This document shows positions 3,944 through 62,400 of a stretch of 64,000 nucleotides of DNA, in pieces. Numbering within the stretch: position 1 is the stretch's first letter; each line of letters starts with the position of its first letter. The DNA comes from Candidatus Kapaibacterium sp. (lineage in GTDB: Bacteria > Bacteroidota > Ignavibacteria > Kapaibacteriales > UBA2268). Location of the stretch: the NCBI GenBank assembly GCA_035445085.1, contig DAOMQA010000001.1:118374-182373 (forward strand), in the 5' to 3' direction. The notes beneath the pieces are model-generated. The model worked only from the letters and a program-made list of their open reading frames with translations. It searched no databases and was not told the DNA's origin. Both the position numbers and the translations under genes were made by a program.

Positions 3944-4640
3944 AGATTATATATCAAGCTCAGACGGCTACAATCTAAAATTTAAGCGGGAAACACTTTT
4001 AAATTACGGGATGAATCGTTGGGGATTAAATAAAGCTTATAGTGTTGGCGCAACTTCCGAGTTAATTAGAGCTTGCGCACCTACAACATATGATGAATGG
4101 GAGCAGTTTTATTTTACGCAGGCAAAGCAGAAGAAAAAAGATGGGCTTCAGATTACAAGGGAATATATTACAAATCTTGGGCAAACGCTTTACGTCAAGC
4201 TTTCGGAAGTTGTTCAATATGAACTTGAACAAATAACAGATGAAGAATGTATTGACTACGCTTACAACTTAGTTTTAAATCGGACCTATGAAGGTTACCG
4301 CACAGAAATTGAGACTATTTATGGACAACTTGAAGATGCTATTGGTTATAAAATCGAGCCTGCACCTGATAATTGGGACAGAACATACAGTGTTGATTTT
4401 TTTGTAAAAATCAACACCAAAAGCATTGGTATCCAGATAAAGCCAATTACATCAGGACAGTCACTTAACCACTACCAATGGGCTGAAATACACCGTAAAA
4501 ATCACGAAAATTTTGAAAAAGAATTTGGCGGTAAAGTGTTTTTCGTATTTTCTAACAAGAGTTCAAGCGGGAACAAGAAAATCTACAACATAGAAGTAAT
4601 TGAGCAAATTCGAAATGAAGTACAACGATTGTTGCAATAG
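3936..4640 (+). CDS. putative Type II restriction endonuclease (partner of the upstream methyltransferase)
   Basis: The ATG overlaps the methyltransferase stop by 8 nt (translational coupling). PD-(D/E)XK-like motif SVDFF...IGIQIKP. Same elevated GC as the methyltransferase gene. No recognisable family. Confidence 0.45.
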   Translation: MDKDYISSSDGYNLKFKRETLLNYGMNRWGLNKAYSVGATSELIRACAPTTYDEWEQFYFTQAKQKKKDGLQITREYITNLGQTLYVKLSEVVQYELEQITDEECIDYAYNLVLNRTYEGYRTEIETIYGQLEDAIGYKIEPAPDNWDRTYSVDFFVKINTKSIGIQIKPITSGQSLNHYQWAEIHRKNHENFEKEFGGKVFFVFSNKSSSGNKKIYNIEVIEQIRNEVQRLLQ

Positions 4641-9334: not shown

Positions 9335-11818
9335 TTATGATAGTATTTTTGTACTTTGAATTTTCCATATTTCATTAGCGTATTGGTTTATCGTTCTATC
9401 AGAAGAAAATCTACCTGCTCTTGCTGTATTTAGTATTGATTTGCTTAGCCATTTTTTCCTATCCAAGTAAAGATTTGCAACGACCTTATGCATATCGGCA
9501 TAGCTTTGGAAATCGGCTAACACACAGAATCTATCTTTGTATACCAAATCGTTAAAAACCATATCGAATATACCTTGCTCTAATGAATTAAAGAAATTAG
9601 ATTTTAATAAGTCTAAGGTGGCTTTCAGTTCAGCATTAGATTCATAAATAGCAGTAGGATTATAATTATTATTTAGTGCATGAGCTATTTCGTCTGCATT
9701 CATACCAAAAATAAATATATTATCTTCACCAACTTCCTCTAACATTTCGATATTCGCCCCATCGAGTGTGCCAAGTGTAATAGCACCATTTAGCATAAAT
9801 TTCATATTTCCTGTACCTGACGCTTCAAAACCAGCCGTAGAAATTTGTTCTGATACATCTGTTGCAGGTATAATTAATTCTGCCAATGATACCGAATAGT
9901 TTTTCATAAATAAGACCTTTAACTTACCATTAATTTCAGGATCATTATTTATCACATTAGAAATAGAATTGATTAGTTTTATCGTTCTTTTAGCCATTAA
10001 ATAACCGGGGGCGGCTTTCCCAGCAAAAATTACTGTACGCGGCAAAAATGGCATATCTGGATTTTCTTTTAATTTAATGTAAGTATGAATTAATTCAATC
10101 GCATTTAACATTTGCCTTTTGTATTCATGAATTCTTTTAATTTGAACATCAACAACAGATTCATAGTTCATTTTAATATTATAGTTTTCTTCGATATGCT
10201 TAAACAGTTTATTTTTATTTTCTCTTTTTGATTCTTCCCAACGTTTTTGAAATTCACTGTCATTTGCAAATGGCTCAATTTTCTTTAGTTCATACAAATC
10301 AGTTACCCACTTATCCCCTATTGCAGATGTAATTAGATTAGATAGTGAAGTATTAGCTTTTTTAAGCCAACGGCGTTGTGTTATTCCGTTAGTTTTATTA
10401 TTGAACTTTTCAGGGAAAAGCTGATAAAAATCATTAAAAATCTTTTCTTTTAGTATTTTGGTATGTAGCTCTGCTACACCATTAACAGAAAAAGAGCCTA
10501 CAATAGCTAAGTGCGCCATTCTTATCATTTTTTCATTACCCTCTTCAATCAATGACATACGCCTAATTTTATCAATATCATTATAGAATTTCATTCTTAC
10601 AATATCTAAAAATTTAGCATTTATATCATAAATAATTTGAAGGTGACGGGGTAATAGTCTCTCAAATAAGTCCACAGACCACTTTTCAAGCGCTTCTGTA
10701 AGCACAGTATGGTTGGTATATGCAAAAGTCTTCGTAGTAATCTGCCAAGCATAATCCCAATCTAATTTTTCTTCATCAATAAAAATTCTCATAAGCTCTA
10801 CAATAGCTATAGCTGGATGAGTATCATTTAATTGAATAGTATTTTTATCGGCAAAATTCTGTATATTTTTATGTTTAACTTTGAACCTTCTAATAATGTC
10901 TTGGAGCGATGCCGACACAAAAAAATATTGTTGTTTTAAGCGTAATTCCTTGCCTGCAACTGTATTATCATTAGGATACAGCACTTTTGATATATTTTCG
11001 GTTTCAAACCTATTTTCTACTGCTTTAATGTAGTCGCCTTGATTAAAGAAATCAAAATTAAAATCTTGAGATGCTTTGGCTTCCCATAATCTAAGATTAT
11101 TACAAGTCTTATTATTGTAGCCGGGTATAGGAATATCATAAGCAAGCGCTAATACTTCATCGGTATCAACCCATTCATAATTTGTTTTACCCCATTGATT
11201 AGAATGACTAATGATATGACCATTAAATTTTACTTTGTAAGTATACTCAGGGCGTATAATTTCCCAAGGAGAACCATAACCAAGCCAATTATCAGGTTTT
11301 TCTATTTGCCAACCATTCACAATTTCTTGCTTGAATATACCGTATTCATATCTAATCCCATAGCCAAAGGCAGGCAATTCCAGAGTAGCCATACTATCAA
11401 GAAAGCAAGCAGCTAATCTACCTAAACCACCGTTGCCTAATCCCATATCGTGTTCTAATTCTTTTATTTCTTCTAAGTCAAAACCCATTTCTTTTAAAAT
11501 ATTAGCAGATTCTTCGTAAGCACCCAAATTAGTCAATGCGTTACCAAGTAGCCTGCCCATCAAAAATTCCATAGATAGATAATAGACTCTTTTAACATCT
11601 TGCTTATAATAATGATGTTGAGTTCTAAGCCAATTTCTAATTAATCTATCGCGCACAGACAGAGCCATTGCTCTATATGAATCTTCTGAAGTTAAAGTTA
11701 TTTTATCTTTTACTAATCGAAATTCTAAGTTTTCAAACATTTGGTTTCTTAACGAGTAAGAACCCGGCTTTTGCTCATCGGTAAAGAAAATAGAATCTGT
11801 TTTGATTACGTTATCCAT
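9335..11818 (-). CDS. glgP: glycogen/maltodextrin phosphorylase
   Basis: Pyridoxal-phosphate site EASGTGNMKFMLNGA. 827 aa, family GT35. Confidence 0.9.
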   Translation of the reverse strand: MDNVIKTDSIFFTDEQKPGSYSLRNQMFENLEFRLVKDKITLTSEDSYRAMALSVRDRLIRNWLRTQHHYYKQDVKRVYYLSMEFLMGRLLGNALTNLGAYEESANILKEMGFDLEEIKELEHDMGLGNGGLGRLAACFLDSMATLELPAFGYGIRYEYGIFKQEIVNGWQIEKPDNWLGYGSPWEIIRPEYTYKVKFNGHIISHSNQWGKTNYEWVDTDEVLALAYDIPIPGYNNKTCNNLRLWEAKASQDFNFDFFNQGDYIKAVENRFETENISKVLYPNDNTVAGKELRLKQQYFFVSASLQDIIRRFKVKHKNIQNFADKNTIQLNDTHPAIAIVELMRIFIDEEKLDWDYAWQITTKTFAYTNHTVLTEALEKWSVDLFERLLPRHLQIIYDINAKFLDIVRMKFYNDIDKIRRMSLIEEGNEKMIRMAHLAIVGSFSVNGVAELHTKILKEKIFNDFYQLFPEKFNNKTNGITQRRWLKKANTSLSNLITSAIGDKWVTDLYELKKIEPFANDSEFQKRWEESKRENKNKLFKHIEENYNIKMNYESVVDVQIKRIHEYKRQMLNAIELIHTYIKLKENPDMPFLPRTVIFAGKAAPGYLMAKRTIKLINSISNVINNDPEINGKLKVLFMKNYSVSLAELIIPATDVSEQISTAGFEASGTGNMKFMLNGAITLGTLDGANIEMLEEVGEDNIFIFGMNADEIAHALNNNYNPTAIYESNAELKATLDLLKSNFFNSLEQGIFDMVFNDLVYKDRFCVLADFQSYADMHKVVANLYLDRKKWLSKSILNTARAGRFSSDRTINQYANEIWKIQSTKILS

Positions 11819-11898: not shown

Positions 11899-13926
11899 TT
11901 AGTGCAATGAAAATTCTACCCTTCTATTTTTTGACTTTGATTCGTCGGAATTATTATCCATTACAGGTCTGGTATCTCCCCATCCCTTCACTTCTATACG
12001 GGAACTGTCAATCCCAGATTTAATTAAAAAATCAGCAATTGATTGGGCTCTCTTCTTAGATAATTCCATATTATACGCTTTTGTGCCTACATTATCTGTA
12101 TGCCCTTCTATAAGGATTATTTTTTTATTCGGCTTTAGAAACTCTATTAGCCTATTTAATTCTGGCAATGACTCTGGCTTTATATCTGATTTGTCATAAT
12201 CAAAAAAGATATTATTTATAGTTATTTTATGATTGCCATCGTTAATTTCTTTAAGGCTAATTAGTTCTATATCTGCATAAAAATCTCCTACTTTATTATA
12301 ATTACGTAAATCTAAGTTTTTAGAGCTAGGGTAGTAATTTTTCTTTTCTGCAAAATAACCGTATAACTTATCTGGGCTTAAACTTATAAAATACGAGCCA
12401 TCTTTTGGATCACTCTTTACAAAACCTAAATCTTCACCAGTATTTAAATCTTCCCATCGGATAACAGCAGCTAAGGGCTGTCCTAAGGAATTGGTAACCT
12501 TCCCTCTAACTGTTATGACTGAATTTGGTTTCGCTTCTTTAGGTAATTTAATAGAATATATATCCCAAGCTCCATATCCATCTGGTTGGCTATGTTTAGC
12601 GAATAATGCGCTATCGCCTTTGACATCTATTGAATACCCCCAATCATCGCTTTCTCCGTTGATTTCTTTACCTAAATTCACTGGTTCTGACCAATTTAGC
12701 CATGTATCGTCTAAGCGAGTAGATTTGAATACATCTAAGCCACCTAAGCCCGTATGCCCATTAGAGCTAAAATATAATGTTTTGTTATCAGGGTGCAAAA
12801 ATACTGCCCTTTCAGCATAAGGAGTATTGATTATGTTTCCCATATTTATCGGGGCAGTCCAACCAGTATCTCGGTTGAATGAAATATATAGATCCATATT
12901 ACCCATTAGTGAACCGTGGTAGTATTGGGCATTCATTTCTACAAAAGGTCCTACTCCTCCCGGTCTATCGCTTGTAAATATTAAGACTTTTCCATCAGAG
13001 CTAATGTTTGCCGACTCTTCGTGATAAATAGAATTAATCGGTTTATTAATGTGCAACAGTCTATTCCACCCAAGTGAATCCTTTTCCGCAAGAAAAATAT
13101 CAAATTTACCAAAAGTCCCCGGAAATTCACCAGATAAAAACAATATAGTCCCATCAACGCTTACATTATCTACTGTTTCTTCTTCTCTTTTATTTATTTT
13201 GCTTCCTATATTTTTAGCTTGAGTCCATTGGCCGTTTATATTTTCTGAGTACCAAATATCAGCTTTGCCATAGCCTCCCTTTCTATCTGAAGAAAAGTAT
13301 AAATACCTACCATCAGGGGTAAGCGTTGGATCCCATTCACTGTACGGTGTGTTAATTATCTTGCCTAAATTTCTAACTATGAGCCCTTGGTTCTTAGCTC
13401 TGAGTATATTTATAATTGTATCGAATTTATTTTTTTTACTTGAAAATAATGGTAAATATGATTGGTATATTTTGATTGCTTCTTCATATTTATGCTGCTG
13501 TATAAAATTATCAGTTAGCCGTTGAATAGCAACAAAAGAATCATCAGATGGAGCATTGGATTTTATATAATCATCATAAATTGCAACCATTGTAGAATCA
13601 GGCGTTTGCGCCAGCATTGCTCTTTCGGAGTTCAATATTTGTGCATTAATCATAGATTTATAGCCAGGGAATAAGGGCTTATATACTTCAAGAATATATT
13701 TGGCAACGGCAGCTCTTGCCGCTATAAACTGACGATCTGTCCATTGTAACATTAGGTTATATGCACTATCGGCTGGTGCATACTGCCTTATAAACTGATC
13801 ATAGATTTTAACTTTTTCGGGTGTTATTCGTTCATAAGGGTGTATTCTTGTTTGTGAGCGTAAAATAGAACAATAAAATACAATAAAAAGTATGAGAACT
13901 ATTATTTTTGCTATTATTTTTGTCAT
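11899..13926 (-). CDS. OmpA-family protein with TolB-like (PD40) beta-propeller repeats
   Basis: Signal peptide. WD40-like/PD40 repeats. C-terminal OmpA/MotB domain (IEGHTDNVGTKAYNMELSKKRAQSIADFL). Confidence 0.75.
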   Translation of the reverse strand: MTKIIAKIIVLILFIVFYCSILRSQTRIHPYERITPEKVKIYDQFIRQYAPADSAYNLMLQWTDRQFIAARAAVAKYILEVYKPLFPGYKSMINAQILNSERAMLAQTPDSTMVAIYDDYIKSNAPSDDSFVAIQRLTDNFIQQHKYEEAIKIYQSYLPLFSSKKNKFDTIINILRAKNQGLIVRNLGKIINTPYSEWDPTLTPDGRYLYFSSDRKGGYGKADIWYSENINGQWTQAKNIGSKINKREEETVDNVSVDGTILFLSGEFPGTFGKFDIFLAEKDSLGWNRLLHINKPINSIYHEESANISSDGKVLIFTSDRPGGVGPFVEMNAQYYHGSLMGNMDLYISFNRDTGWTAPINMGNIINTPYAERAVFLHPDNKTLYFSSNGHTGLGGLDVFKSTRLDDTWLNWSEPVNLGKEINGESDDWGYSIDVKGDSALFAKHSQPDGYGAWDIYSIKLPKEAKPNSVITVRGKVTNSLGQPLAAVIRWEDLNTGEDLGFVKSDPKDGSYFISLSPDKLYGYFAEKKNYYPSSKNLDLRNYNKVGDFYADIELISLKEINDGNHKITINNIFFDYDKSDIKPESLPELNRLIEFLKPNKKIILIEGHTDNVGTKAYNMELSKKRAQSIADFLIKSGIDSSRIEVKGWGDTRPVMDNNSDESKSKNRRVEFSLH

Positions 13927-13972
13927 TATTTTTAAATATATACTATAAATATTATTATTAAACGGATAAACT

Positions 13973-14611
13973 ATGAAAAAAGTAACTCAATCTTATGTTT
14001 TTATATTATCATTCCTATGTCTCTCATTGCCATTATTCTCTACTCAAATTTTAGTACAAGGTAAAATAATAGATTCTCAATCTAAGCAAGCAATAGGAGT
14101 AAATATTGAATTTAAAGATACTAATGGCAAGAAAATTAAAACTCAATCTAACTCGCAGACAGGAGAATTTCAGCAAATATTGGAGTCTAATACTATCTAC
14201 AATGTCGTTCTAATGAGTAATGATATATTGAGAAAAGAAGTTAAGTTTCATACTTTGGATACCAATAGTTACGCAGAACAAAAAGTAAATTTTAACGTCA
14301 TCAAGCCTATTGTGGGTAGCATAATTTTAGACGATAACCTATTCGAGAATAATTCTAATACTTTGAGCAATGACAGCAAAGATAAACTTGAAGAATTGCA
14401 ATTATTATTAAGATTTAATAGAAATTTAAATGTAGATATTAAGGTCTCGAGTAAAAACAAAGATTTAATGGCTTCACGTTTAGAAGTATTGAAAAATTAT
14501 ATTAATAATTGGAAGAGGGAAAATCCCAGAATTACTATAAATGTAGGCAATACAAATTCAGACAATATTTTAGTGCAAATCAGTACTATTAAAGATTTCT
14601 TAAAGGAGTAG
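13973..14611 (+). CDS. hypothetical secreted protein (CarbopepD_reg-like N-terminus, degenerate OmpA-like C-terminus)
   Basis: Signal peptide. The fold assignments are weak pattern matches only. Confidence 0.35.
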   Translation: MKKVTQSYVFILSFLCLSLPLFSTQILVQGKIIDSQSKQAIGVNIEFKDTNGKKIKTQSNSQTGEFQQILESNTIYNVVLMSNDILRKEVKFHTLDTNSYAEQKVNFNVIKPIVGSIILDDNLFENNSNTLSNDSKDKLEELQLLLRFNRNLNVDIKVSSKNKDLMASRLEVLKNYINNWKRENPRITINVGNTNSDNILVQISTIKDFLKE

Positions 14612-14629
14612 TTTTTCAAAATATCTTTC

Positions 14630-15964
14630 TTAATCAATTGTGTATACTCTTCTCCAAAATTGAGAGCTAAATTTTGGGTCTATATATTTAGTAAATTCCT
14701 GAATATTAGGGTAAGATTTAATAAAGTCCGAAGATTTCATTCTTGCATCTTTAGCAGGGTAAATCCTACCACCAGCGCCAAATACAATTTCATCACATCG
14801 TTTGAGCAACTCAAATAGCTTTACGCCGTGCATCTTAAAGTCGATAGCTAAGGTAATACCTTCCATTGGAAAAGACATTAATCCTGGTGAGCTAATATTC
14901 CCAAATGATTTTAAAACCGTCAAAAATGATGGGTATCCAGAATCAGCAATCATTTTAAATATTTTCTTTAAATTATCAATAGCATTTGAATTAGGGATTA
15001 CAAATTGGTATTGCAAAAAGCCATCTTTGCCGTAAGCTCTATTCCAATTATTAATTTTATCCAAAGGATAAAAAAAGGTATTATAGTCAATAATACTTCT
15101 TCTTTGCTTACCAATTTGTTTATTAAAATATAAAAAGTTAAAGACTTTGGTACTTAAATTATTAATAAATGAGTATTCAAAAGGAAAATTGATTGCTTGC
15201 TTTTCGTTGGCTACATATTCAATCTGATTTTGTTCATCTGCAAAATTTCCACGTGAAAATATACCATAGCCAAGCTTATTTGTGCTTACCCAAGATACGG
15301 TATAATCATAATTTAAAGATTCATTATTAATAGCAAAAAATTCCTCAAAAGAATAAAACTTTATATTCTCGCAATCTATTAATGGTCCATTTACTTTAAT
15401 TAACTGTATTTCTGCACTAAGAATAAGACCAGTTAAGCCAAGCCCTCCGATAGTAGCTTTAAACATCTCTACGTTCTCATTTTGTGAACAATGGTATATA
15501 TTTCCATCACTTCTTAATAAATCGAAAGAAATAACATAATTACCAAAAGTTCCATATTTATGATGATTTTTCCCATGAACATCGTTAGCTATTGCGCCGC
15601 CTAAGGTAATATATTTGGTACCCGGAGTAATAGGTAAGAAATATTTTTGTGGTAAGAAAACATCAATTATTTCCTGCAAAGTAACGCCTGCTTGAGCCTT
15701 GACTACGGCAGTATTATTGTCGAATGATATAAATTTATTTATTGTACTACAATCTATTAATATATTATCAGAATTTAAACAAGAGTCCCCATAACTTTTG
15801 CTGAGTCCACGTGGCAAATAGTATTTATTATCGTTAAATTTGATATTTTTTGAATCAGCATTGATTATACATTGATTTGATGGTATTGGATATGCGCCAA
15901 AAGAATAGTATTTGCTCATCATAACAATCCCATAATCATAATGACAGCAACCATCAAAATACAA
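14630..15964 (-). CDS. FAD-linked oxidase, DprE1 (decaprenylphosphoryl-beta-D-ribose 2'-oxidase)-like
   Basis: PRGLSKSYGD and TPGTKYITLGGAIANDVHGKNHHKYGTFGNYVISFDLLRSDGNI closely track the DprE1 FAD-binding region. Confidence 0.8.
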   Translation of the reverse strand: MYFDGCCHYDYGIVMMSKYYSFGAYPIPSNQCIINADSKNIKFNDNKYYLPRGLSKSYGDSCLNSDNILIDCSTINKFISFDNNTAVVKAQAGVTLQEIIDVFLPQKYFLPITPGTKYITLGGAIANDVHGKNHHKYGTFGNYVISFDLLRSDGNIYHCSQNENVEMFKATIGGLGLTGLILSAEIQLIKVNGPLIDCENIKFYSFEEFFAINNESLNYDYTVSWVSTNKLGYGIFSRGNFADEQNQIEYVANEKQAINFPFEYSFINNLSTKVFNFLYFNKQIGKQRRSIIDYNTFFYPLDKINNWNRAYGKDGFLQYQFVIPNSNAIDNLKKIFKMIADSGYPSFLTVLKSFGNISSPGLMSFPMEGITLAIDFKMHGVKLFELLKRCDEIVFGAGGRIYPAKDARMKSSDFIKSYPNIQEFTKYIDPKFSSQFWRRVYTID

Positions 15965-17334
15965 ATATAACTTACTTTATCTTTCACAGCAAACGCAATA
16001 GGATCATCATTCATTTGTTTCCTATCAGCTAAGAGCCACAGCCTTGAGCACCAATATAAAAAAACTGGCACAATTAAATACAAAACTTTAGGATGTTGAT
16101 ATAGTTGCATTACGTTAGGACTATTAATATAAAATACAATTATAAGAATAGCAATCATACTTGAGCTAATACCAGTAACTTGTATGATATGTATATCTTC
16201 GGCTATATACCCCCTACCAGACAATACTTTTTCTTTATAATTTTTTAATTCAGCAAACCTTTTTAATGCTCCCATTGAGAAAAAGAAAAATAAAGCAAAC
16301 ACTATCAGCCATTCGGATATTACGTTATCTGAAACTACTGCACCAGCTTCAAGACGCAAAATATATAGTAGTGCCAAAGTAATAATATCAATTAAATATA
16401 ATCCCTTAAGAATACTTGTATATAAGAATGTCGTAATAGAATATATTATTAATACAAGGGTAAAATGATAGCTTAAATTTAAACTGATAGTAAAACCAAT
16501 GATAATAAGCAAGAACGAATAAAGCAATGCATTGCTTATCTTAAAATTACCAGCGGCTAAAGGTCTGTATTTTTTTGTAAAATGCAATCTATCGCTCTTC
16601 AAGTCCATCAAATCATTAAAGATATAAATAGACGATGCTATGCAACTAAAAGATAAGAAAGCAATGATTAAATCTATATATGTATTAAAATTTGTGTTAT
16701 GAGCTAATAGTGAAGGCGTAAAAATTAACAAATTTTTAACCCACTGAAATACCCTAAATTGCTGTATTAATATTGATATAGTAGAAGTACTGCTATTGTC
16801 AAATACCTTTGTAACCTTGCTAATCTTTTTGGCTTGCTCTACCAATTTATTATCATTACTAACAATTAAAGCATTATTGCTATGCTTCCATACAGCTAAA
16901 TCTTTGTAAGTATCTCCAACATAGTCATAGCCTTTCTCTCCAAATCTATTTACAAGGTAATTTGCCTTTGAAGTAGATGTTAAGTTAATTCCATAACCCG
17001 AACCTATAGCGTCGTCAAAGAATTTAAACCTTTTTTGAAATACATCTGCATACTCTTGGACGGCGGCTGTCACAAGGTAAATTATCCTCCCTTGTTTTTT
17101 CTCTTCAATCAAATAATTTCTAACTTCTTCATTTATAGGTATAGTATCAAAATCAATTTGTACTCTTTTTGACAATTGTTCCTTTAAAAACAATCTTCCT
17201 TTGAAAGCCCAACATATAATGAACAATATGTATATTGGATTTTGCTTTAAAAGCAAGGGTATTGCCTCGAGCATTAAATCCGTTTTAATCAAAGTACCGT
17301 CAAGGTCAACGCATAATGGCATATCATTATTCAT
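15919..17334 (-). CDS. HAD-family phosphatase fused to UbiA-family prenyl/phosphoribosyl transferase
   Basis: N-terminal HAD motif I (CVDLDGTL). C-terminal ~280 aa contain 8-9 transmembrane segments and a UbiA-like NDxxD motif (FNDLMDLKSD). Confidence 0.7.
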   Translation of the reverse strand: MNNDMPLCVDLDGTLIKTDLMLEAIPLLLKQNPIYILFIICWAFKGRLFLKEQLSKRVQIDFDTIPINEEVRNYLIEEKKQGRIIYLVTAAVQEYADVFQKRFKFFDDAIGSGYGINLTSTSKANYLVNRFGEKGYDYVGDTYKDLAVWKHSNNALIVSNDNKLVEQAKKISKVTKVFDNSSTSTISILIQQFRVFQWVKNLLIFTPSLLAHNTNFNTYIDLIIAFLSFSCIASSIYIFNDLMDLKSDRLHFTKKYRPLAAGNFKISNALLYSFLLIIIGFTISLNLSYHFTLVLIIYSITTFLYTSILKGLYLIDIITLALLYILRLEAGAVVSDNVISEWLIVFALFFFFSMGALKRFAELKNYKEKVLSGRGYIAEDIHIIQVTGISSSMIAILIIVFYINSPNVMQLYQHPKVLYLIVPVFLYWCSRLWLLADRKQMNDDPIAFAVKDKVSYICILMVAVIMIMGLL

Positions 17335-18458
17335 CGTAGTTTTGCTATCCTTTTTTCAAAAATTTGCAATGCAACACCAACAATTTGGTCCATATTATAA
17401 TATTTATAATCTGCTAAACGCCCGCAGAAAATGACTTTGTCTGCTATCTTATCTACTTCAATCTTATATTTTTGGAAAAGTTCATTATTCTCTGCTTTTG
17501 GAATTGGATAATACGGTTCGTTAGTTAGTTTATCGTATTGCTGTGGAAATTCATAAGCAATTGTAGTCTTGCTATGTTTTTGCTTTGTTAAATGCTTAAA
17601 TTCAGTAATGCGGGTATAATCAAAGTTATTTGGATAGTTAATTTGTGCAAGTTCTTGAAAATTATCAAAATCGAATGTTTGAAAATCAAATTTTAAGCTT
17701 CTATATGGTAATTCCCCATACATATAATCAAAATAAGTGTCGATAGGTCCAGTATAAATTAGTTTATCATATTGGATGCCGCTTTTAATATCTTCAAAAT
17801 CTGCATTAAGTAATATATGGATATTCTTGTGATTTAAGATGTTATTAAACATAGCTGTATAGCCATTTTGTGGTATCCCCTGATATGTATCTTGGAAATA
17901 TCTATCATCTCGACTAATATAAACCGGAACACGGGCAGAAACAGAGCTATCTAATTCTTCAGGCTTCATTCCCCATTGTTTTAGAGTATAGCCATGAAAA
18001 ACATTTTTATAAATATAATTTGCTAAGAAGTTTAAATCGCTGTCTTTAGTCTCTAACATTTTGAGAATAGGAATTTTAAGCCCAAAGCCATAATTTTCAA
18101 TTAATTTATTTTGTAGTTTTTCTGCATAAGCTTTTGGAAAAACTTGGTCGATACTATTTAAGTTAAATGGTACAGGTATAGCCTTACCTTCTACAATAGC
18201 TTTAACGTGGTGGATATGCCTATTCCATTTGGTAAAAATTGAAAGATAGTCCCAAACTTTCTTTGACAAAGTATGAAAAATATGAGGTCCAAACTTATGC
18301 ACTAAAATTCCATTCTCATCATAATAGTCGAAAGCATTACCAGCTATATGGCTTCTTTTATCTATAATTAGGCATTTTTTGTCTAATTGCGTTGCAATCC
18401 TTTCGGCTAACACTGAGCCAGCATACCCAGCTCCTACTATCAAATAATCGTATTTCAT
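17331..18458 (-). CDS. glf: UDP-galactopyranose mutase
   Basis: MKYDYLIVGAGYAGSVLA is a GxGxxG FAD motif. Strong collinear similarity to E. coli Glf through the RLADYKYYNMDQ region. Confidence 0.9.
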   Translation of the reverse strand: MKYDYLIVGAGYAGSVLAERIATQLDKKCLIIDKRSHIAGNAFDYYDENGILVHKFGPHIFHTLSKKVWDYLSIFTKWNRHIHHVKAIVEGKAIPVPFNLNSIDQVFPKAYAEKLQNKLIENYGFGLKIPILKMLETKDSDLNFLANYIYKNVFHGYTLKQWGMKPEELDSSVSARVPVYISRDDRYFQDTYQGIPQNGYTAMFNNILNHKNIHILLNADFEDIKSGIQYDKLIYTGPIDTYFDYMYGELPYRSLKFDFQTFDFDNFQELAQINYPNNFDYTRITEFKHLTKQKHSKTTIAYEFPQQYDKLTNEPYYPIPKAENNELFQKYKIEVDKIADKVIFCGRLADYKYYNMDQIVGVALQIFEKRIAKLR

Positions 18459-19894
18459 CGTTTAATTAATGATTTGAGTTCACTTATACTTAAAACTTTT
18501 AAAGCAAGAGACATACCAAAATATAAAACAGTACTACTAATAATTCTTAATATCGGGCTTAAGTAATCGCTTACAAAATAGATAGGAAGAAATGAAAGCA
18601 TTAATATTGGAACAAATTGTACTATTTCTTTCAAGTATATTTTAGCATGTACTTTTTTAAAGATTATAATTATGCTTACTAATACTCCAAATTCACAAAG
18701 TATAGTTGCAAAGGCAGAACCATACATTCCATATTTCGGTATTAAAACAATATTTAATATTATATTTAATATAAGTCCTATTAAATTCGCAAATACCACT
18801 TTCTTTTCTTGCTTCCACGAAATTAATGGCGCAAAATAGATTGATATTAAAAACTGAATAAGAATAGTAAATGATAATACTTTTAATATCGAATCGGTAT
18901 TGGTATATTTATCGCCTAATAATACAACTACATAATCAGCCATAAAAAACAAATACCCAAAAACTAAGAAGGCTGTTAATGATTGTAATTTAGTATATTT
19001 AGATATTATATTATCTCGTTCTTGGAATGTTTCTTTTTGAGATATTTGTGGAAAAAATGCACTTTGCAGTATGAGCGATGGCAAAATGGCGAAAAATATT
19101 ACTTGATGAGCGGCTCCATAGATTCCTGTTTCAAAGTCTCCTCTAAACATTCCAAGTAATGTAATATCAATATTATTATATAATGTTGATATTAAAAAAA
19201 TTAGACCAATTGAAAAAGCTTCACGGGATACATTAGCCCATTCTTTCAGATTGAAATTAAAAGAAAATGAATTGTATTTTTTCAAATAATAGATTAACAT
19301 TATTATAGCATTTATGCACATTGAGGCACTAATAATAACAACTGCCAAAGTTAGGTCATTGCTACTTTTAATTAACACTATAATACAAATAAAATTAAGT
19401 AAGTATACACCTATGGTGCGAATAGCAATTACTTCCATTTGTTCTATTGCCTGAAAGTACCAGTTCAGCATTATAGCGTTAGTAAATAATGTGATACCAT
19501 ATATATACACTAAGTGTTGATTTTGGGATAATTCTGGCTTATTAAGAATTAATATTTGAACAACAATAACAAGCGCCAAAAAAGATACAAAAGCTATAAA
19601 TAATCTTATACTAACTATTAAATCAACAAATTTCTTGCTTAGTAATCTATCTTTGGCTATTTCTCTGATTCCTACTTGATCGTAGCCTAAAGCAACTAGT
19701 ATAAGGAAGTATTGTACTAATGATTTTGTGAAGTTAAGTATTCCATTACTCTCTGGACCAATTACTTTTATCAAATATATAGTATAAATAATGGCAAGTC
19801 CTTTACTCGCCATTTCTGCTATTGATAAAGAAAATATATTTTTTAATAATTTTGTTTTAGAGTCCATTTTATTTAAGAATATACTTCCTTCCAA
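18455..19894 (-). CDS. Wzx-type oligosaccharide flippase (MOP superfamily)
   Basis: 479 aa with ~12-14 transmembrane helices. 4-nt overlaps with both neighbours. Confidence 0.7.
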   Translation of the reverse strand: MEGSIFLNKMDSKTKLLKNIFSLSIAEMASKGLAIIYTIYLIKVIGPESNGILNFTKSLVQYFLILVALGYDQVGIREIAKDRLLSKKFVDLIVSIRLFIAFVSFLALVIVVQILILNKPELSQNQHLVYIYGITLFTNAIMLNWYFQAIEQMEVIAIRTIGVYLLNFICIIVLIKSSNDLTLAVVIISASMCINAIIMLIYYLKKYNSFSFNFNLKEWANVSREAFSIGLIFLISTLYNNIDITLLGMFRGDFETGIYGAAHQVIFFAILPSLILQSAFFPQISQKETFQERDNIISKYTKLQSLTAFLVFGYLFFMADYVVVLLGDKYTNTDSILKVLSFTILIQFLISIYFAPLISWKQEKKVVFANLIGLILNIILNIVLIPKYGMYGSAFATILCEFGVLVSIIIIFKKVHAKIYLKEIVQFVPILMLSFLPIYFVSDYLSPILRIISSTVLYFGMSLALKVLSISELKSLIKR

Positions 19895-21600
19895 TCGTTT
19901 AGGTCCAATTCTGGAAATATAGAATTTCTTTTTTCGGTCTCTTCCAAATACTTTAGGTCATTTTGTGGCAAAACTTGCTTGTCCATATATTTTTCTAAGG
20001 AATCACATAATCTATTAAAATCAGAATGATGGTTTGCAAACCTCATCTCTGCATAATCTTTGGCTGACTCTGTATAAATTAAGAACTGCCAATCTGATGA
20101 TTGTAATAATAAAAGCTCTTTTAATATTTGTAAAAGAATTCTTTTTCCTTGAGCATCAATGTTTTCATTAAAGTATTGTCGATATAGATTATCAAACCTT
20201 AATTCATCATTATAAATACTCTCCCAAGTCCACTTATTTTCCTCATTACTCCATACTGTATGGTCATTATTAACTCCCCATGAACCTTCAGGAATAGAAA
20301 TAATTTCTTTAGGATTTATTATTCTATATTGTTCTTCAGCGGTTACCATATTAACATAGGGCGACTGGTGAAGTCCTTTAATTACAGAACGTAAAAATTC
20401 TGGACCCTCGAACCACCAATGACCAAATAATTCAGTATCAAATGGTGTAGTAACTGTAGATAATTTGCCAGACTGTGCATTATAATAATTTGAGGCATTT
20501 TCTAAATTATGAATAAAATGATTTGACTGTTTATCAATTTTATCCTTAGTCCAATCTGGATGATATAATGTTTTATACATCATATCAGCTTTGCTATCAG
20601 TAACTCTCCAATATCTATGCATAGATGGGAAATGTTTTTTATGAAAATCTAAATAATCTGGCTCGGCAGGGTAGCCAATTTGCCCGCTCCACACTTGCAT
20701 AGATAAATCGTGATGTCTTGTAAAAATTGCGGCTGTACCATATTCTATTTTTTCTGATGAAGCAACCTCATAAATCCTTAGTGGATTTTTGTCGAATTCC
20801 CAATTTTTATGAATAAAGTTAGGTGAATTAAATGGAACAAATCCTTCCTTATTATTTGCCGTAAATTCTCCTATTGGACTCATTCTTTTGAGTAAATCCT
20901 CATCTGTTACAAAATATTTTATACCGTGTGTAGCTAAAATTTGCTCAACCCCAGTTCTTAATTTTTTTGAATTAAAGGGAGTAATTGGTAAGTAGGTTTG
21001 CCATTCATACGACGGTCTATAGGCGCATTCTGGCAACCATATTCCTTTAGGCTCTCTCCCAAAGTATTTTTTATAGTTTTTAACGGCTGTAGCTACTTGT
21101 AGATTTATGCTTTTATCAAATCCTAATAAAGGGAAATACCCATGCGTGGCGCCACACGTCATAATTTCGATAGCATTTTGGTCTTGAAGCTGTTTAAGTC
21201 CATTTATTATAGATGAGTCATATTTCTTAATGTAATCTTCTTTTTTATTTGTGTACCACTCTTCCCAAAAATTGGTTAGCCAAATATGGTGTTCGTCATA
21301 GCCCCAATTTTTAAAGTTTTGCCTATCTTCTTGAGCAGATTTGATTTTTTGCTCACAGTATTCGATAAAAATTTTCTTAAAGTCTTTATGCTCTAATTGC
21401 TCGCATAAAATAGGCGATATATCTAATGTAACTTTAGGAACTATCCCTTCACTTAAGCAATCATTAAAAACGTTTAACAAAGGGATGTAGCATTCGGCAA
21501 CTGCTTCGCTAAGCCAATCTACCCCGTGGGGCCAATTGCCATGATGCAGTACCCAAGGCAAGTGAGTATGTAATATTAAAACATAATTTCCAGAGTGCAT
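19873..21600 (-). CDS. glycoside hydrolase family 57 protein (alpha-glucan branching enzyme/amylase type)
   Basis: N-terminal VLILHTHLPWV...GNWPHG is a GH57 hallmark. Confidence 0.8.
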   Translation of the reverse strand: MHSGNYVLILHTHLPWVLHHGNWPHGVDWLSEAVAECYIPLLNVFNDCLSEGIVPKVTLDISPILCEQLEHKDFKKIFIEYCEQKIKSAQEDRQNFKNWGYDEHHIWLTNFWEEWYTNKKEDYIKKYDSSIINGLKQLQDQNAIEIMTCGATHGYFPLLGFDKSINLQVATAVKNYKKYFGREPKGIWLPECAYRPSYEWQTYLPITPFNSKKLRTGVEQILATHGIKYFVTDEDLLKRMSPIGEFTANNKEGFVPFNSPNFIHKNWEFDKNPLRIYEVASSEKIEYGTAAIFTRHHDLSMQVWSGQIGYPAEPDYLDFHKKHFPSMHRYWRVTDSKADMMYKTLYHPDWTKDKIDKQSNHFIHNLENASNYYNAQSGKLSTVTTPFDTELFGHWWFEGPEFLRSVIKGLHQSPYVNMVTAEEQYRIINPKEIISIPEGSWGVNNDHTVWSNEENKWTWESIYNDELRFDNLYRQYFNENIDAQGKRILLQILKELLLLQSSDWQFLIYTESAKDYAEMRFANHHSDFNRLCDSLEKYMDKQVLPQNDLKYLEETEKRNSIFPELDLNDWKEVYS

Positions 21601-21846
21601 TATACCCCCATATTTCCTAATAAGAAAATCCTTTAAGTTTCAAAAATACTTATTTTCATCACTAATTTCAAATAATGTCAATATATAAATTAGTAGCTAT
21701 ATTAATTTGGTTTAATCAACTTCTCTATACACTCTTTTTTTACACTTCTATTGAAAAAATAAATCTGAAATAATTATTATATAATATTAGAAATATTTTT
21801 GCTAATTTAGAATTGGTTTAATTATCAATACGGTCTAATAATTATT

Positions 21847-22836
21847 ATGCAAGAAGATGAATTATTTTATCAAAAAAAAGTATTTAACTCTATATCCGAC
21901 CCTAGCAGTCTATTTACCACTACAAGTGGCAAAAGATTGCAGTTTTTATCGCCAGGTAAAATCAAAAGAACTGGACCTGACTTTGAAGATATTGCTATTT
22001 TGATAAACGGCTTTTTAGTTGTTGGCGATTGTGAATTTCATATAAATAGTTCAGATTGGGTAGGACATCGGCACGAGGACAACGATAAGTATAAAACGGT
22101 TATCTTGCATATAGTGTTGAATAATGATACACAAATCAAAGGTGCTTTTGAGACATTAGTTTTAAGCAAAGAATTATTGCAAGATAGCTCTGACACTAAT
22201 ACTGAAGAATCGACCCCAGAAGTAGAAGAAATACAAAATTTTGCCTTATTAAGGCTTTTAAGAAAAACATCTGTGGCAAAAAATCTCTTAAATCATCATT
22301 CTTTACAAGATACCTTACAAATCTTGTCGCAAGAATTTATTCATCAATATGAATCAAAGCTACATCGCCCTAAATATAAACAAGCAAATTTAAGTAATTT
22401 AATTGACTCTATTTCTGATTCGGAACTATACAACTTTGTAGTAGCAATATCAGAAAATAAGAGTATTTCTATTCCTGACAAACTACAATCATTAGTAAGA
22501 ACAAAACTTTTGAACGAAGGTCCACACCTAAGACGAGAATTAATACTAAACGCTGTTATCCCCTTAGTTTTATCTTTAGCTAACGACGAAAATCGTATAA
22601 ATATTTTTGTATGGTATTGGTCTACCCCAGCTCTAAATTCCTATGGCATATTGAATAGAAAATTTCCTAATAAACCACAAAACTTCCTATGGCAACAGCA
22701 AGGAATGTTAGAATATTTACGCGAATATGGCAAACGTACAAATATTATAGCAGAATCATTTAGACGCTATGACTTCTTTGAAGTTCTTAGCTTCTACAAG
22801 CATGGTAGATTACCTTTAGAGTTATTAGAAAATTAG
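21847..22836 (+). CDS. hypothetical protein
   Basis: ORF only. Preceded by a 247-bp AT-rich divergent intergenic region containing a TATTTTTG motif at 21794-21801, a candidate Bacteroidota -7 promoter element. Confidence 0.45.
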   Translation: MQEDELFYQKKVFNSISDPSSLFTTTSGKRLQFLSPGKIKRTGPDFEDIAILINGFLVVGDCEFHINSSDWVGHRHEDNDKYKTVILHIVLNNDTQIKGAFETLVLSKELLQDSSDTNTEESTPEVEEIQNFALLRLLRKTSVAKNLLNHHSLQDTLQILSQEFIHQYESKLHRPKYKQANLSNLIDSISDSELYNFVVAISENKSISIPDKLQSLVRTKLLNEGPHLRRELILNAVIPLVLSLANDENRINIFVWYWSTPALNSYGILNRKFPNKPQNFLWQQQGMLEYLREYGKRTNIIAESFRRYDFFEVLSFYKHGRLPLELLEN

Positions 22837-23813
22837 CCAATAATTTTAACAATTTCTTCGGCAACCCTTAGTGCTTCGGATGCTTCGTTAGCATTCACTG
22901 CAATAGGTATATTATCTTGTATTGCTGCAACAAAAGCGTTTTGCTCTTCAGCTATTGCATTAATTTTGTCTATGTGTGGTTTTTCAAAGTATATATTTCT
23001 ATTATTAGAACCAGTATCAATAGACCCCAACATCATAGCAGGTACCCCATCAGTAGAATTTAGCCCTTCATCATATATTTTATATATTTCTACATTCTGC
23101 TCTTGAAAATCTAAAGAAATATAAGCATCTTTCTGGAATATACGCATTTTTCGCATAGGATTTGCTGATATTCTGGAGGCTGTAATATTTGCTGTAAGAC
23201 CATTCTCAAATTTTAACCTAGCGTTGGCTATATCTATACTATCGCTTAATACAGAAACTCCATTAGCATCAATATTAGTTATTTTTGATTTTGCAAGCCA
23301 GAGGATAATGTCTATATCGTGTATCATTAAATCATGAATAACAGACACATCTAAAGCTCGAGGTTTGAATTGACTCAATCTATGTGCTTCAATAAAAAGC
23401 GGATTGATATTATATGCCTTAATTGCTTTAATTGCGGGATTAAACCTTTCTACATGCCCTACTTGAATTAGTACTTTATTTTTTTTAGCACTTTCAATTA
23501 AATCGATAGATTCTTGATAAGTATTTGTAATTGGTTTTTCAATTAAGCAATGTTTACCACTTTGTATACATTGCTTAGCTACTTCCCAATGATAAATCGT
23601 AGGAACAGCAATAGTTGTAGCATCAGAATTTTCAATTACCTCCTCAATAGAATTGAAATTTGTGCAATTATAATCATTAGATATTTTATTTGATTTTTCT
23701 TTATCTACATCAAAAATACCAACCAATTCGACATTAGGGTTTAGCGACCATAATTTAGTATGAATACTGCCAAGGTGGCCAGCTCCAACTACAGATACCT
23801 TCAGTTTTGACAT
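22833..23813 (-). CDS. Gfo/Idh/MocA family oxidoreductase
   Basis: Rossmann motif VSVVGAGHLGSIH and EKP motif. Confidence 0.75.
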   Translation of the reverse strand: MSKLKVSVVGAGHLGSIHTKLWSLNPNVELVGIFDVDKEKSNKISNDYNCTNFNSIEEVIENSDATTIAVPTIYHWEVAKQCIQSGKHCLIEKPITNTYQESIDLIESAKKNKVLIQVGHVERFNPAIKAIKAYNINPLFIEAHRLSQFKPRALDVSVIHDLMIHDIDIILWLAKSKITNIDANGVSVLSDSIDIANARLKFENGLTANITASRISANPMRKMRIFQKDAYISLDFQEQNVEIYKIYDEGLNSTDGVPAMMLGSIDTGSNNRNIYFEKPHIDKINAIAEEQNAFVAAIQDNIPIAVNANEASEALRVAEEIVKIIG

Positions 23814-62182: not shown

Positions 62183-62400
62183 ACAATATACAAAAATTAC
62201 TGGGGGCTGAGGTTCTCGAAGGCAAAAACGGTGGTTTCGAGAACCTCAACCACCGGAAGCAAGACATCGACGAGGACCTCAACCACCAGCGAGAACCAAT
62301 GTCGCCTGAGGTTCTCGAAGGCGAGGTTCTCGAAGGCGAGGTTCTCGAAGGCGAGGTTCTCGAAGGCAAGGCTATCGAAGGCAAGGCTATCGAAGCCCCA
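61955..62400 (+). repeat. GC-rich in-frame repeat block (25-nt palindromic units plus 15-nt tandem units)
   Basis: GGTGGTTTCGAG(G/A)ACCTCAACCACC at 61955, 62051, 62230, with partial copies at 62086 and 62272. Tandem 15-nt units gaggttctcgaaggc/aaggctatcgaaggc at 62000-62044 and 62308-62397. About 55% GC against ~30% background. Confidence 0.85.

Follow-up and report, generated by a model that had tools for sequence, protein, structure and literature searches.

A Kapabacteria operon encoding a HAD–UbiA fusion and a DprE1-like oxidase in the absence of a neighbouring DprE2-like gene

Introduction

ORF15 of C. youngae is a characterised HAD–UbiA fusion that acts as a polyprenyl-phosphoribofuranose synthase (Kelly et al., PNAS 2024, PMC11127046). 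It produces farnesyl-P-Ribf from PRPP in vitro, and removal of the 5-phosphate is the task of its HAD domain (PMC11127046). Araf-containing glycans correlate with DprE1/E2 adjoining synthases of this type, and the pairing of HAD–UbiA with DprE1/E2 outside the Corynebacterineae has already been published (PMC11127046).

Here we describe a related locus within a 64-kb stretch (hereafter the window) of a 363-kb contig from an uncultured Kapabacteria bacterium. The locus is a recognisable member of the described pathway, incomplete here in that the usual DprE2 partner is missing. The idea of a fused HAD–UbiA enzyme paired with DprE1 outside the Corynebacterineae is correct but not new; the modest novelty is that the window, like at least four genomes related to it, has no DprE2-like SDR beside DprE1. 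We consider it fairly probable that the operon provides the activated furanose donors from which a glycan of the envelope or surface is built.

Results

Architecture of the operon

Five co-directional ORFs on the minus strand span positions 14630–21600, with coordinates exactly as previously given (Table 1). A sequence-only reading had named them GH57, Wzx, Glf, HAD–UbiA and DprE1-like, and both the ORFs and the domain matches agree. It had also described overlaps of 4–46 nt. The Wzx/Glf, Glf/HAD–UbiA and HAD–UbiA/DprE1 junctions indeed share an ATGA, giving three 4-nt overlaps, whereas the 46- and 22-nt values arose because the maximal ORFs use TTG codons further upstream, and they vanish with the probable ATG starts; at the remaining junction, the GH57 stop codon TAA (19873–19875) is separated from the Wzx ATG at 19867 by a 5-nt gap.

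A spacer of 246 nt lies ahead of the operon, and a convergent gene (13973–14611) comes after it. The spacer contains a promoter-like motif, which we take to be the Bacteroidetes sigma-A type consensus and which occurs four times in the window as compared with 1.8 ± 1.3 times in shuffles. The GTATTTTTGAA core and its upstream TTTG are kept before GH57 in three related loci (L006, L028 and L029; L numbers denote loci of other genomes), while the remaining spacer has diverged. The ATGA junctions and this conserved motif uphold the earlier proposal of a single operon, and the five genes form a predicted single transcription unit.

Table 1 Features of the operon and their positions in the window.
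Feature	Coordinates	Strand	Basis or remark
Promoter-like motif TTTG-N20-TAtTTTTG	21641–21672	−	41 nt upstream of GH57 ATG, within the spacer
GH57-family alpha-1,4-glucan branching-enzyme homologue, 575 aa, first operon gene	19873–21600	−	Pfam Glyco_hydro_57 and BE_C
Wzx/MOP-family polysaccharide flippase, 470 aa	18455–19867	−	ATG 19867, alternative TTG start 19894; Pfam Polysacc_synt, 117 bits
UDP-galactopyranose mutase Glf, 375 aa	17331–18458	−	GLF domain; TIGR00031, 425 bits (cutoff 304)
HAD-family phosphatase domain (PRP-type), N-terminal, ~aa 1–185	16780–17334	−	Weak Pfam HAD match and motifs
UbiA-fold polyprenyl-phosphate phosphoribosyltransferase (PPPRS) domain, C-terminal, ~aa 186–471	15919–16779	−	NF006088, Rv3806c match
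DprE1-like FAD-dependent polyprenyl-phospho-ribofuranose 2'-oxidase, 430 aa, last operon gene	14630–15922	−	FAD_binding_4, NF053785

The HAD–UbiA fusion retains the phosphoribose-binding site

As a whole, the protein encoded by the HAD–UbiA ORF (15919–17334) scored 532 bits with NF006088, against a cutoff of 351. In its HAD domain the DxDGT nucleophile motif is intact (motif I, D10-L-D12-G-T), and motif IV reads G140-D141-xxx-D145. Among PDB entries, the UbiA domain matched Rv3806c best (8j8j, E = 9e-22), followed by archaeal DGGGP synthase (5e-5), and it conserves N240, D241, D244, D248, R359 and E362. The PRPP/phosphoribose contacts of Rv3806c have been named in a study that found phosphoribose-binding sites not to be conserved among UbiA prenyltransferases (PMC10994848). 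Ten of the eleven contacts are kept here (R22, K28, Y70, N73, D77, K87, R90, Y138, K143 and Y157). The exception is Q135, a ribose O3 contact, which is Thr in the window, as it is in each of the other six HAD-fused sequences of the alignment. The domain matches Rv3806c, and a menaquinone/ubiquinone-type prenyltransferase is not favoured.

The DprE1-like protein retains the catalytic residues

The ATGA overlap places the start of the DprE1-like gene at 15922, as opposed to the maximal ORF of 14630–15964; the NCBI call HRP01117.1 (429 aa) begins one codon later and is otherwise identical. The protein scored 345 bits with the DprE1 model NF053785, which is below the NCBIfam equivalog cutoff of 500 bits, and the second family reached 52 bits. 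It shares 36% identity with M. tuberculosis DprE1, and its top PDB matches are all DprE1 of M. tuberculosis or M. smegmatis (E = 4e-74), followed by cytokinin dehydrogenase (1e-8). Y60, H132, K134, Q334, Q336, K367 and K418, which we take to be the DprE1 active site, are all retained. C387, presumably the benzothiazinone target, is replaced by Ala and N385 by Thr, as in every non-actinobacterial homologue examined. With DprE1 matches far ahead of other FAD oxidases and the catalytic residues kept, an unrelated PCMH oxidase is not favoured. The comparisons of oxidase and UbiA domain, both favourable, lend support to the earlier proposal of a lipid-linked furanose glycan of the Araf/Galf type.

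GH57, Wzx and Glf

The GH57 protein matched Pfam GH57 (1.7e-40) and BE_C (7e-22) and, in the PDB, most closely the GH57 branching enzyme of T. kodakarensis (3n8t, E = 4.6e-118); its scores on the NCBIfam branching-enzyme models, 442 and 395 bits, lie under their equivalog cutoffs. Most simply, it would be an alpha-glucan branching enzyme that shares the transcript and probably has no part in the furanose chemistry. Glycogen phosphorylase is encoded elsewhere in the window, at 9335–11818. The Wzx protein has at least nine hydrophobic segments in a crude hydropathy scan, and its sole PDB match (E = 0.0017) is to a flippase for teichoic-acid subunits. For Glf, the top PDB match is the UDP-galactopyranose mutase 3hdq (E = 4.8e-117). 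All five genes of the operon fit their families, with scores that stand well clear of the next family, and the sequence thereby shows both these enzyme-family assignments and the operon structure.

DprE2-like genes in the window and in related loci

The sequence-only reading had stated that the operon contains no DprE2-like SDR, which is true and holds for all 64 kb of the window: three DprE2-like SDRs used as tblastn queries gave a best E of about 2, and the adh_short domain is absent from all scanned ORFs. No SDR, GT-C-like polytopic protein, small 4-TM flippase or other glycosyltransferase was found within these 64 kb, so that reduction, flipping and transfer (steps 4, 6 and 7 below) are without a candidate gene of these kinds. 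Nor was an SDR from the MAG of the window among the best 120 database matches listed for the DprE2-like queries.

The core of HAD–UbiA, DprE1 and DprE2 occurs in many phyla, and in L001, L002 and L007 it stands without Wzx, Glf and GH57. A DprE2-like SDR adjoins DprE1, is fused to it or lies 4 kb off in 19 of 22 loci of other genomes, and also in L003. The SDRs of L001, L002 and L003 score above the cutoff of NF005489, with DprE2 as best PDB match (4e-31). The order GH57–Wzx–Glf–HAD–UbiA–DprE1 recurs in L006, L028 and L029, and in L003 with the SDR added at the end, persisting down to ~54% DprE1 identity. No SDR follows DprE1 in the window, L006, L029, L030 or L040, and the downstream genes differ in each. 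Unlinked DprE2-like SDR genes are present in the low-GC FCB-type contigs L031–L038.

In five SDR-less genomes (the window, L006, L028, L029 and L030), the DprE1-like gene is intact and agrees with DprE2-linked relatives at every active-site column; the clade carries just two specific substitutions at otherwise conserved columns. The intact gene and unchanged active site speak for an oxidase that still works, not for a relic.

Discussion

In the pathway that we propose, the UbiA-fold domain would place PRPP-derived ribofuranose-5-phosphate on a polyprenyl phosphate carrier that is probably undecaprenyl-P (step 1), and the fused HAD domain would take off the 5-phosphate to give polyprenyl-P-beta-D-ribofuranose (step 2). 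The DprE1-like flavoenzyme would oxidise the 2'-OH to a 2'-keto intermediate (step 3), which a reductase encoded outside the locus would convert to polyprenyl-P-D-arabinofuranose (step 4); the likeliest such enzyme is an unlinked SDR of the DprE2 type. In parallel, Glf would convert UDP-Galp to UDP-Galf (step 5). The MOP/Wzx-type protein may flip a lipid-linked sugar or a lipid-linked oligosaccharide so that it faces the periplasm (step 6), and transferases encoded elsewhere, a GT-C type enzyme adding the pentofuranose and a Leloir enzyme adding Galf, would assemble the final glycan (step 7). The lipid, the final sugar (Araf over Ribf or a keto-sugar), the substrate of the flippase and the acceptor glycan are the parts of this scheme that we infer. 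In Corynebacterium and M. tuberculosis, a DprE2 paralogue that is not linked to the locus (Rv2073c/NCgl1429) can stand in for DprE2. Because of this precedent and the unlinked DprE2-like SDRs of L031–L038, an unlinked reductase is plausible for the operon in the window.

Alternatively, DprE1 might operate in this clade without a DprE2-type partner, with a non-homologous reductase finishing the epimerisation or with a lipid-linked 2-keto-pentofuranose as the product, serving as a donor or as precursor of another sugar such as an amino- or branched pentofuranose. The SDR is absent in the window, L006, L029, L030 and L040 while DprE1 keeps all catalytic residues, which contrasts with the 19 of 22 loci and L003, and the MAG contributes no SDR to the 120 matches listed. 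Yet the shared active-site columns and only two clade-specific substitutions give no sign of a changed reaction, similar genomes do carry unlinked DprE2-like genes, and our view covers 64 kb of a 363-kb contig. Moreover, no candidate for a replacement enzyme is conserved beside the operon; a nearby GFO/IDH/MocA gene keeps its position in L006 and L028, though not in L029. We regard this alternative as unlikely. It is very unlikely that the pathway ends at polyprenyl-P-ribofuranose, giving a Ribf glycan like that of C. youngae O1, with the DprE1-like gene dispensable or being lost after loss of DprE2. Epimerase-free HAD–UbiA systems adding Ribf do exist (PMC11127046; Vibrio plasmid L041), and DprE2 is absent in the window, but the DprE1-like ORF is full length, free of frameshifts and catalytically complete. 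It is kept in at least five diverged genomes at ~69% identity to the window protein, unlike a decaying gene, and an active DprE1 with no reductase to follow it would use up the Ribf donor.

The five genes might also be neighbours with no common product, GH57 belonging to glycogen metabolism, Wzx and Glf to an ordinary Wzx/Wzy-type Galf polysaccharide, and HAD–UbiA and DprE1 to a separate module for periplasmic pentofuranose modification. The closeness of GH57 to solved branching enzymes, the glycogen phosphorylase at 9335–11818 and the separable modules implied by L001, L002 and L007 fit such a view. However, three stop/start overlaps, a single conserved promoter-like site and a gene order shared by L003, L006, L028 and L029 to ~54% DprE1 identity make it quite unlikely, and it overlaps with the favoured furanose-donor reading, where GH57 is already a passenger.

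Among related loci, L003 (GCA_942492935.1, FCB group) has the same five genes in order and orientation (54–66% protein identity), and the Kapabacteria loci L001 and L002 share the HAD–UbiA–DprE1 core; all three differ from the window in having a DprE2-like SDR directly after DprE1. Compared with the Corynebacterineae DPA pathway (UbiA Rv3806c, Rv3807c, DprE1 Rv3790 and DprE2 Rv3791), the transferase and oxidase are homologous, with conserved substrate-binding and catalytic residues, and the predicted chemistry is identical as far as the 2'-keto intermediate. The window differs in its fused HAD phosphatase, in place of the unrelated Rv3807c, in its probable undecaprenyl rather than decaprenyl lipid, and in the lack of an adjacent DprE2 and nearby Emb/Aft-type arabinosyltransferases. 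The D-Araf pilin glycosylation system of P. aeruginosa PA7/Pa5196 (homologues of Rv3806c, DprE1 and DprE2, plus TfpW) likewise offers a Gram-negative route from PRPP through polyprenyl-P-Ribf to Araf with DprE1-type oxidation (PMC11127046; bioRxiv 10.1101/2020.04.19.049825). Unlike the window, its synthase is without a fused HAD domain (PMC11127046), and the cluster includes DprE2 as well as TfpW, a GT-C oligosaccharyltransferase of its own. C. youngae O1/O2, the source of the ORF15-type synthase, is an enterobacterium rather than a member of the Kapabacteria (FCB group). In the "three-component" systems of pentofuranose glycosylation (PMC11127046) a small 4-TM flippase and a GT-C (GT136-like) protein are employed, where the window has neither, but a 470-aa MOP/Wzx protein and Glf. 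Of the DprE1/E2 epimerase pair, the window encodes the oxidase half only. The logic is nevertheless the same, an auxiliary epimerase module (DprE1/E2) turning a Ribf donor into Araf, and ORF15 and the HAD–UbiA protein of the window have the same two domains, a HAD phosphoribose phosphatase at the N terminus and a UbiA-fold PRPP:polyprenyl-P phosphoribosyltransferase at the C terminus, with the same motifs in loop II (N/D-rich) and loop IV (R/E).

Results

ORF calling recovered the five minus-strand genes that the sequence-only reading had delimited in 14630-21600, at exactly the same coordinates, in an AT-rich window (~31% G+C). The overlaps of 4-46 nt claimed between them were borne out in part. 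With the probable ATG starts, the Wzx/Glf, Glf/HAD-UbiA and HAD-UbiA/DprE1 junctions each consist of a shared ATGA with a 4-nt overlap, whereas overlaps of 46 and 22 nt appear only if the maximal ORFs are read from their upstream TTG codons. A 5-nt gap separates the end of GH57 from the Wzx ATG.

Genes of the operon, all coordinates in window numbering
Gene	Position	Strand	Basis and remarks
GH57 + BE_C	19873-21600	-	Pfam domains
Wzx/MOP protein, Polysacc_synt	18455-19894 (maximal ORF)	-	Pfam; ATG-start form 18455-19867, 470 aa
UDP-galactopyranose mutase Glf	17331-18458	-	TIGR00031
HAD-UbiA fusion	15919-17334	-	NF006088
DprE1-like FAD_binding_4 oxidase	14630-15964 (maximal ORF)	-	NF053785; ATG-start form 14630-15922

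The operon is bounded by a 246-nt spacer upstream and a convergent gene (13973-14611) downstream. The spacer contains TTTG-N20-TAtTTTTG at 21672-21641 (-), 41 nt 5' of the GH57 ATG, a match to the Bacteroidetes -33/-7 promoter consensus. This promoter-like motif occurs four times in the window (1.8 +/- 1.3 in shuffles), and the core before GH57 is kept in three related loci (L006, L028 and L029; TTTG-N19-20-TAtTTTTG), the remaining spacer having diverged. Another copy, at 15993-15962, was considered as an internal promoter before DprE1; it is conserved in no relative and was therefore treated as chance. The single terminator-like hairpin inside the operon lies within the Wzx gene, is below shuffle expectation and was not accepted as a terminator. 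No Rfam family was found within 13000-23000.

The oxidase matched Pfam FAD_binding_4 (E 3.6e-21) and scored 345 bits over 390 residues with the DprE1 model NF053785, the next family reaching 52 bits. This score falls short of the 500 bits that NCBIfam sets as equivalog cutoff, a value apparently tuned to actinobacterial sequences. In a search of all PDB sequences, DprE1 of M. tuberculosis or M. smegmatis took the first nine places (E = 4e-74 to 2e-69), and the best non-DprE1 match was cytokinin dehydrogenase (1e-8). The protein, which is identical to HRP01117.1, shares 36% identity with M. tuberculosis DprE1. We aligned both with 15 homologues. Y60, H132, K134, Q334, Q336 and K418 (M. tuberculosis numbering), which form the active site in DprE1 structures, are kept in the window oxidase and all 15 homologues; the same alignment showed K367 in the window oxidase. 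C387 is replaced by Ala and N385 by Thr, two changes that all examined non-actinobacterial homologues share. The PDB comparison and the kept catalytic residues agree with the DprE1 homologue proposed earlier. The protein is apparently functional, and is predicted to convert polyprenyl-P-ribose to the 2'-keto sugar.

The adjacent gene had been described as a fusion of a UbiA transferase with a HAD phosphatase. Indeed, the two-domain model NF006088 scored 532 bits, above its cutoff of 351, and covered residues 2-469. The N-terminal domain carries the HAD motifs D10-L-D12-G-T14 and G140-D141-xxx-D145, read from the window fusion itself; the loop-I nucleophile in ORF15, a HAD-UbiA synthase of C. 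youngae, is D18 (PMC11127046). The UbiA loop motifs N240, D241, D244, D248 and R359/E362 are also present. In the comparison that the sequence-only reading had called for, the best PDB match of the UbiA domain was the mycobacterial Rv3806c (8j8j, 9e-22), followed by archaeal DGGGP synthase (5e-5). The PRPP/phosphoribose contacts of Rv3806c are listed in its structure paper, according to which conservation of the phosphoribose-binding sites does not extend to UbiA prenyltransferases (PMC10994848). Ten of the 11 are kept in the fusion (R22, K28, Y70, N73, D77, K87, R90, Y138, K143 and Y157); the eleventh, Q135, is Thr there and in each of the six further HAD-fused sequences of the alignment. The PDB ranking and the conserved residues thus argue against both alternatives named beforehand, an oxidase grouping with unrelated PCMH oxidases and a UbiA domain of the menaquinone/ubiquinone type. 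We predict from these residues that the fusion makes polyprenyl-P-Ribf from PRPP. Full-length homologues are frequently found on plasmids of Rhizobium, Vibrio and roseobacters. Phage copies were considered and set aside, with only one match, partial and weak.

The remaining genes of the operon fitted their proposed families to different degrees. Glf exceeded the TIGR00031 cutoff (425 vs 304 bits) and matched PDB 3hdq at 4.8e-117, confirming the UDP-Galf mutase. The Wzx/MOP protein contains a Polysacc_synt domain (117 bits vs a Pfam cutoff of 28) and at least nine hydrophobic segments in a crude hydropathy scan, consistent with the claimed flippase, and it reached 45 bits with the NCBIfam Wzx_EPS equivalog (cutoff 800); we regard it as a putative flippase. 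The GH57 protein has GH57 catalytic and BE_C domains and a branching enzyme as its best solved homologue (3n8t, 5e-118), and falls below the NCBIfam equivalog cutoffs (442 vs 1000 bits; 395 vs 920 bits). Its promoter-proximal position in the operon is conserved, and a glycogen phosphorylase lies 2.8 kb past the operon end. We read it as a co-transcribed alpha-glucan gene encoding a predicted branching enzyme.

DprE2, the SDR reductase that usually accompanies DprE1, had been reported missing from the operon, and a Pfam scan found no adh_short protein in the operon or in the whole 64-kb window. Consistently, tblastn of three DprE2-like SDRs from other loci (L001, L003 and L004) against the whole window for a remnant gave only chance matches (E >= 1.8). 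Searches of 5.8 billion proteins with the DprE2-like SDRs of L003 and L031 placed no SDR of this MAG among the 120 matches listed, and a cluster look-up returned an accession for the window DprE1-like protein (HRP01117.1) and none for SDR candidates.

To place this absence in context, we drew on the DprE1-like family, which comprises no fewer than 8000 proteins in the database (E < 1e-20), and compared 40 loci, 22 of them genome_contigs loci over many phyla. In 18 of these 22, a DprE2-like SDR lies no more than ~110 nt downstream of DprE1 or is fused to it; one has the SDR 4 kb away, and three lack it. The linked SDRs score above the NF005489 cutoff, with DprE2 as second-best model, and their best PDB match is DprE2 (4e-31 vs 2e-17 for the next). 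The same module appeared among database matches from Ignavibacteria, Sphingobacteriia, Acidobacteriota, Chloroflexota and many Proteobacteria. A syntenic FCB-group locus from a 4.5-Mb low-GC genome (L003, GCA_942492935.1) has GH57, Wzx, Glf, HAD-UbiA and DprE1 in the order of the window, followed directly by a DprE2-like SDR. The closest relatives (L006, L029, L030 and L040; ~69% identity to the window DprE1) share the operon of the window, which in them likewise stops at DprE1. L005 and the window come from one organism, and L028, of the same group, is uninformative on the SDR as its contig stops 187 nt past DprE1. No SDR follows DprE1 in the DprE2-less relatives with enough downstream sequence, and the downstream genes differ per locus, indicating that loss of DprE2 from the operon is a stable feature of the clade. 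The absence is neither an assembly artefact nor a recent lesion.

The compared loci also showed other arrangements. In several, the gene after DprE2 encodes a protein of 455-546 aa that has 7-9 TM segments, lacks a Pfam match and is probably a GT-C component. Apparent DprE1-DprE2 fusions, single in-frame ORFs of ~668-670 aa, occur in three Bacteroidota MAGs, namely a Bacteroidetes bacterium, a Sphingobacteriia and an Aquirufa MAG (L018 3196-5202, L019 9890-11896 and L021 10001-12013). In three Kapabacteria-type loci with HADUbiA-DprE1-DprE2, the gene immediately after DprE2 encodes a PdxB-like D-2-hydroxyacid dehydrogenase of 361-363 aa that scores below the PdxB equivalog cutoff (L001 12041-13132, L002 3642-4733 and L007 12012-13097). 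A Gammaproteobacteria MAG (L016) and an Acidobacteriaceae MAG (L017) encode DprE1-like proteins 37-41% identical to that of the window, with no UbiA or DprE2-like gene within 10 kb; the neighbor in L016 is a phosphoglucomutase gene. These two proteins may act on a different substrate.

Two further components were sought in the window. No credible small multi-TM ORF that could serve as a small (~4-TM) flippase with the synthase was found in the 64 kb; an antisense 151-aa ORF (45906-46361) inside a GGDEF gene was taken as spurious. The only polytopic proteins in the window are the HAD-UbiA fusion and the 470-aa MOP/Wzx protein. For a GT-C enzyme, there was no other polytopic protein of at least 400 aa, tblastn with the 7-9-TM DprE2 neighbors from other loci returned nothing in the window, and no glycosyltransferase of any kind is encoded in the 64 kb.

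Elsewhere in the window, an N6/N4 DNA methylase gene, whose product has a staphylococcal-nuclease-like domain at its C-terminus, overlaps an MjaI-family restriction endonuclease gene (2648-4640), and a GIY-YIG nuclease-domain protein precedes a type I restriction-modification specificity (S) subunit at 61667-63651. Large secreted repeat-rich proteins are encoded at 5089-9273 (-) and 24880-29457 (+). The large secreted protein at 54304-56001 (+) carries a T9SS C-terminal sorting domain; T9SS sorting domains in the window fit with the FCB group.

Discussion

The mycobacterial cell wall is the best-known setting of D-arabinofuranose and galactofuranose, and DprE1 is a validated drug target there; to our knowledge, animals have neither sugar. 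The conserved DprE1 and PRPP-site residues support the lipid-linked furanose pathway proposed for this FCB bacterium, as a prediction from sequence and with an incomplete locus. We propose that the UbiA domain would transfer phosphoribose from PRPP to polyprenyl-P, yielding polyprenyl-P-Ribf-5-P, from which the HAD domain would remove the phosphate to give polyprenyl-P-Ribf. The DprE1-like oxidase would then form the 2'-keto intermediate, and a reductase encoded in trans would convert it to polyprenyl-P-Araf. In parallel, Glf would make UDP-Galf, the MOP/Wzx-type protein would flip a lipid-linked saccharide, and transferases encoded elsewhere would complete the glycan. The family assignments and the operon structure rest on tool results; we infer which lipid, end sugar, flippase substrate and acceptor are involved.

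How the pathway is completed depends on the reductase, and the missing DprE2 gene is most likely located elsewhere in the genome. An unlinked location is precedented: low-GC FCB-type contigs (L031-L038; for example, L031 8001-8738) have a DprE2-like SDR, 60% identical to that of L003, away from any DprE1. The conserved neighborhood consists of ManC, Cob adenosyltransferase, dCMP deaminase, the SDR, OmpA and RNase R, and the arrangement is widespread in metagenomes (36 blocks of the collection). Assigning these contigs to the DprE2-less clade was rejected, as they have no flanking genes in common with it; the L031 RNase R is 55% identical to that of the window, and no SDR lies near the latter. 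A tie through co-phylogeny also failed, because the L003 DprE1 is 63-65% identical to many DprE2-linked sequences and only 54% identical to those of the window clade.

It is improbable, in our judgment, that DprE1 operates free of DprE2 in this clade, through a non-homologous reductase or toward a non-Araf pentofuranose, with polyprenyl-P-pentofuranose exported by the MOP/Wzx protein; if true, the pentofuranose donor pathway would here have a variant architecture. The active-site columns of DprE1 are identical between the DprE2-less and DprE2-linked groups, giving no sign of an altered reaction. Neofunctionalisation of DprE1 in the DprE2-less clade was likewise rejected, as clade-specific changes at conserved columns number just two (M. 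tuberculosis H145 to Y and P276 to N), and neither affects the active site. Upstream of the operon, a DUF2851 gene and a GFO/IDH/MocA gene (21847-23813) form a pair that is also present in L006 (66%) and L028 (82%), and not in L029. The GFO/IDH/MocA oxidoreductase (22833-23813), UDP-GlcNAc 3-dehydrogenase-like but below cutoff, was dismissed as a substitute reductase, being found in L006 and L028 but not L029 and lying outside the operon beyond a divergent gene. The clade-wide absence of DprE2 from the operon offers a natural test of whether a trans-encoded reductase or another enzyme can take over the reduction. Potential for real novelty lies only in this absence beside an apparently functional DprE1 and a MOP-type flippase.

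The locus suggests that the chemistry from PRPP through polyprenyl-P-Ribf and the 2'-keto sugar to Araf is also encoded in deep-branching uncultured FCB-group bacteria, and leads us to predict that Kapabacteria have a surface glycan with Araf, Galf or both. It does not overturn current understanding; it is an FCB/Kapabacteria example of an already known pathway type, incomplete at the locus. It also backs Kelly et al., who see lipid-linked pentofuranose donors as a strategy used generally by bacteria (PMC11127046).

The HAD-UbiA enzyme type is already known, and the idea of the sequence-only reading is in this respect not new. C. youngae ORF15, which has the same architecture, makes farnesyl-P-ribofuranose from PRPP in vitro (Kelly, Duong, Nothof, Lowary, Whitfield, PNAS 2024, PMC11127046), and mutation of its HAD nucleophile yields the 5-phosphate product. 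In three-component periplasmic pentofuranose glycosylation, such synthases are partnered by a small flippase and a GT136 enzyme of the GT-C type, and Araf glycans correlate with DprE1/E2 homologues adjoining the synthase (PMC11127046). The D-Araf pilin system of P. aeruginosa is an older Gram-negative example. A text search of one supplement of that paper returned no FCB-group examples. At locus level, the window operon has the polyprenyl-phosphate phosphoribosyltransferase (PPPRS) domain and lacks the other two of the three components, and DprE2 is also absent. On the Vibrio alfacsensis plasmid pYa108 (L041, 103071-106332), a HAD-UbiA synthase is followed by an EamA transporter of 122 aa and a hypothetical membrane protein of 486 aa, all adjacent within an XrtA/exosortase polysaccharide locus; this resembles a three-component pentofuranose system carried on a plasmid and lacking the epimerase. 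The plasmid locus has the textbook layout, with the small EamA protein beside the synthase, whereas the window operon has no small transporter.
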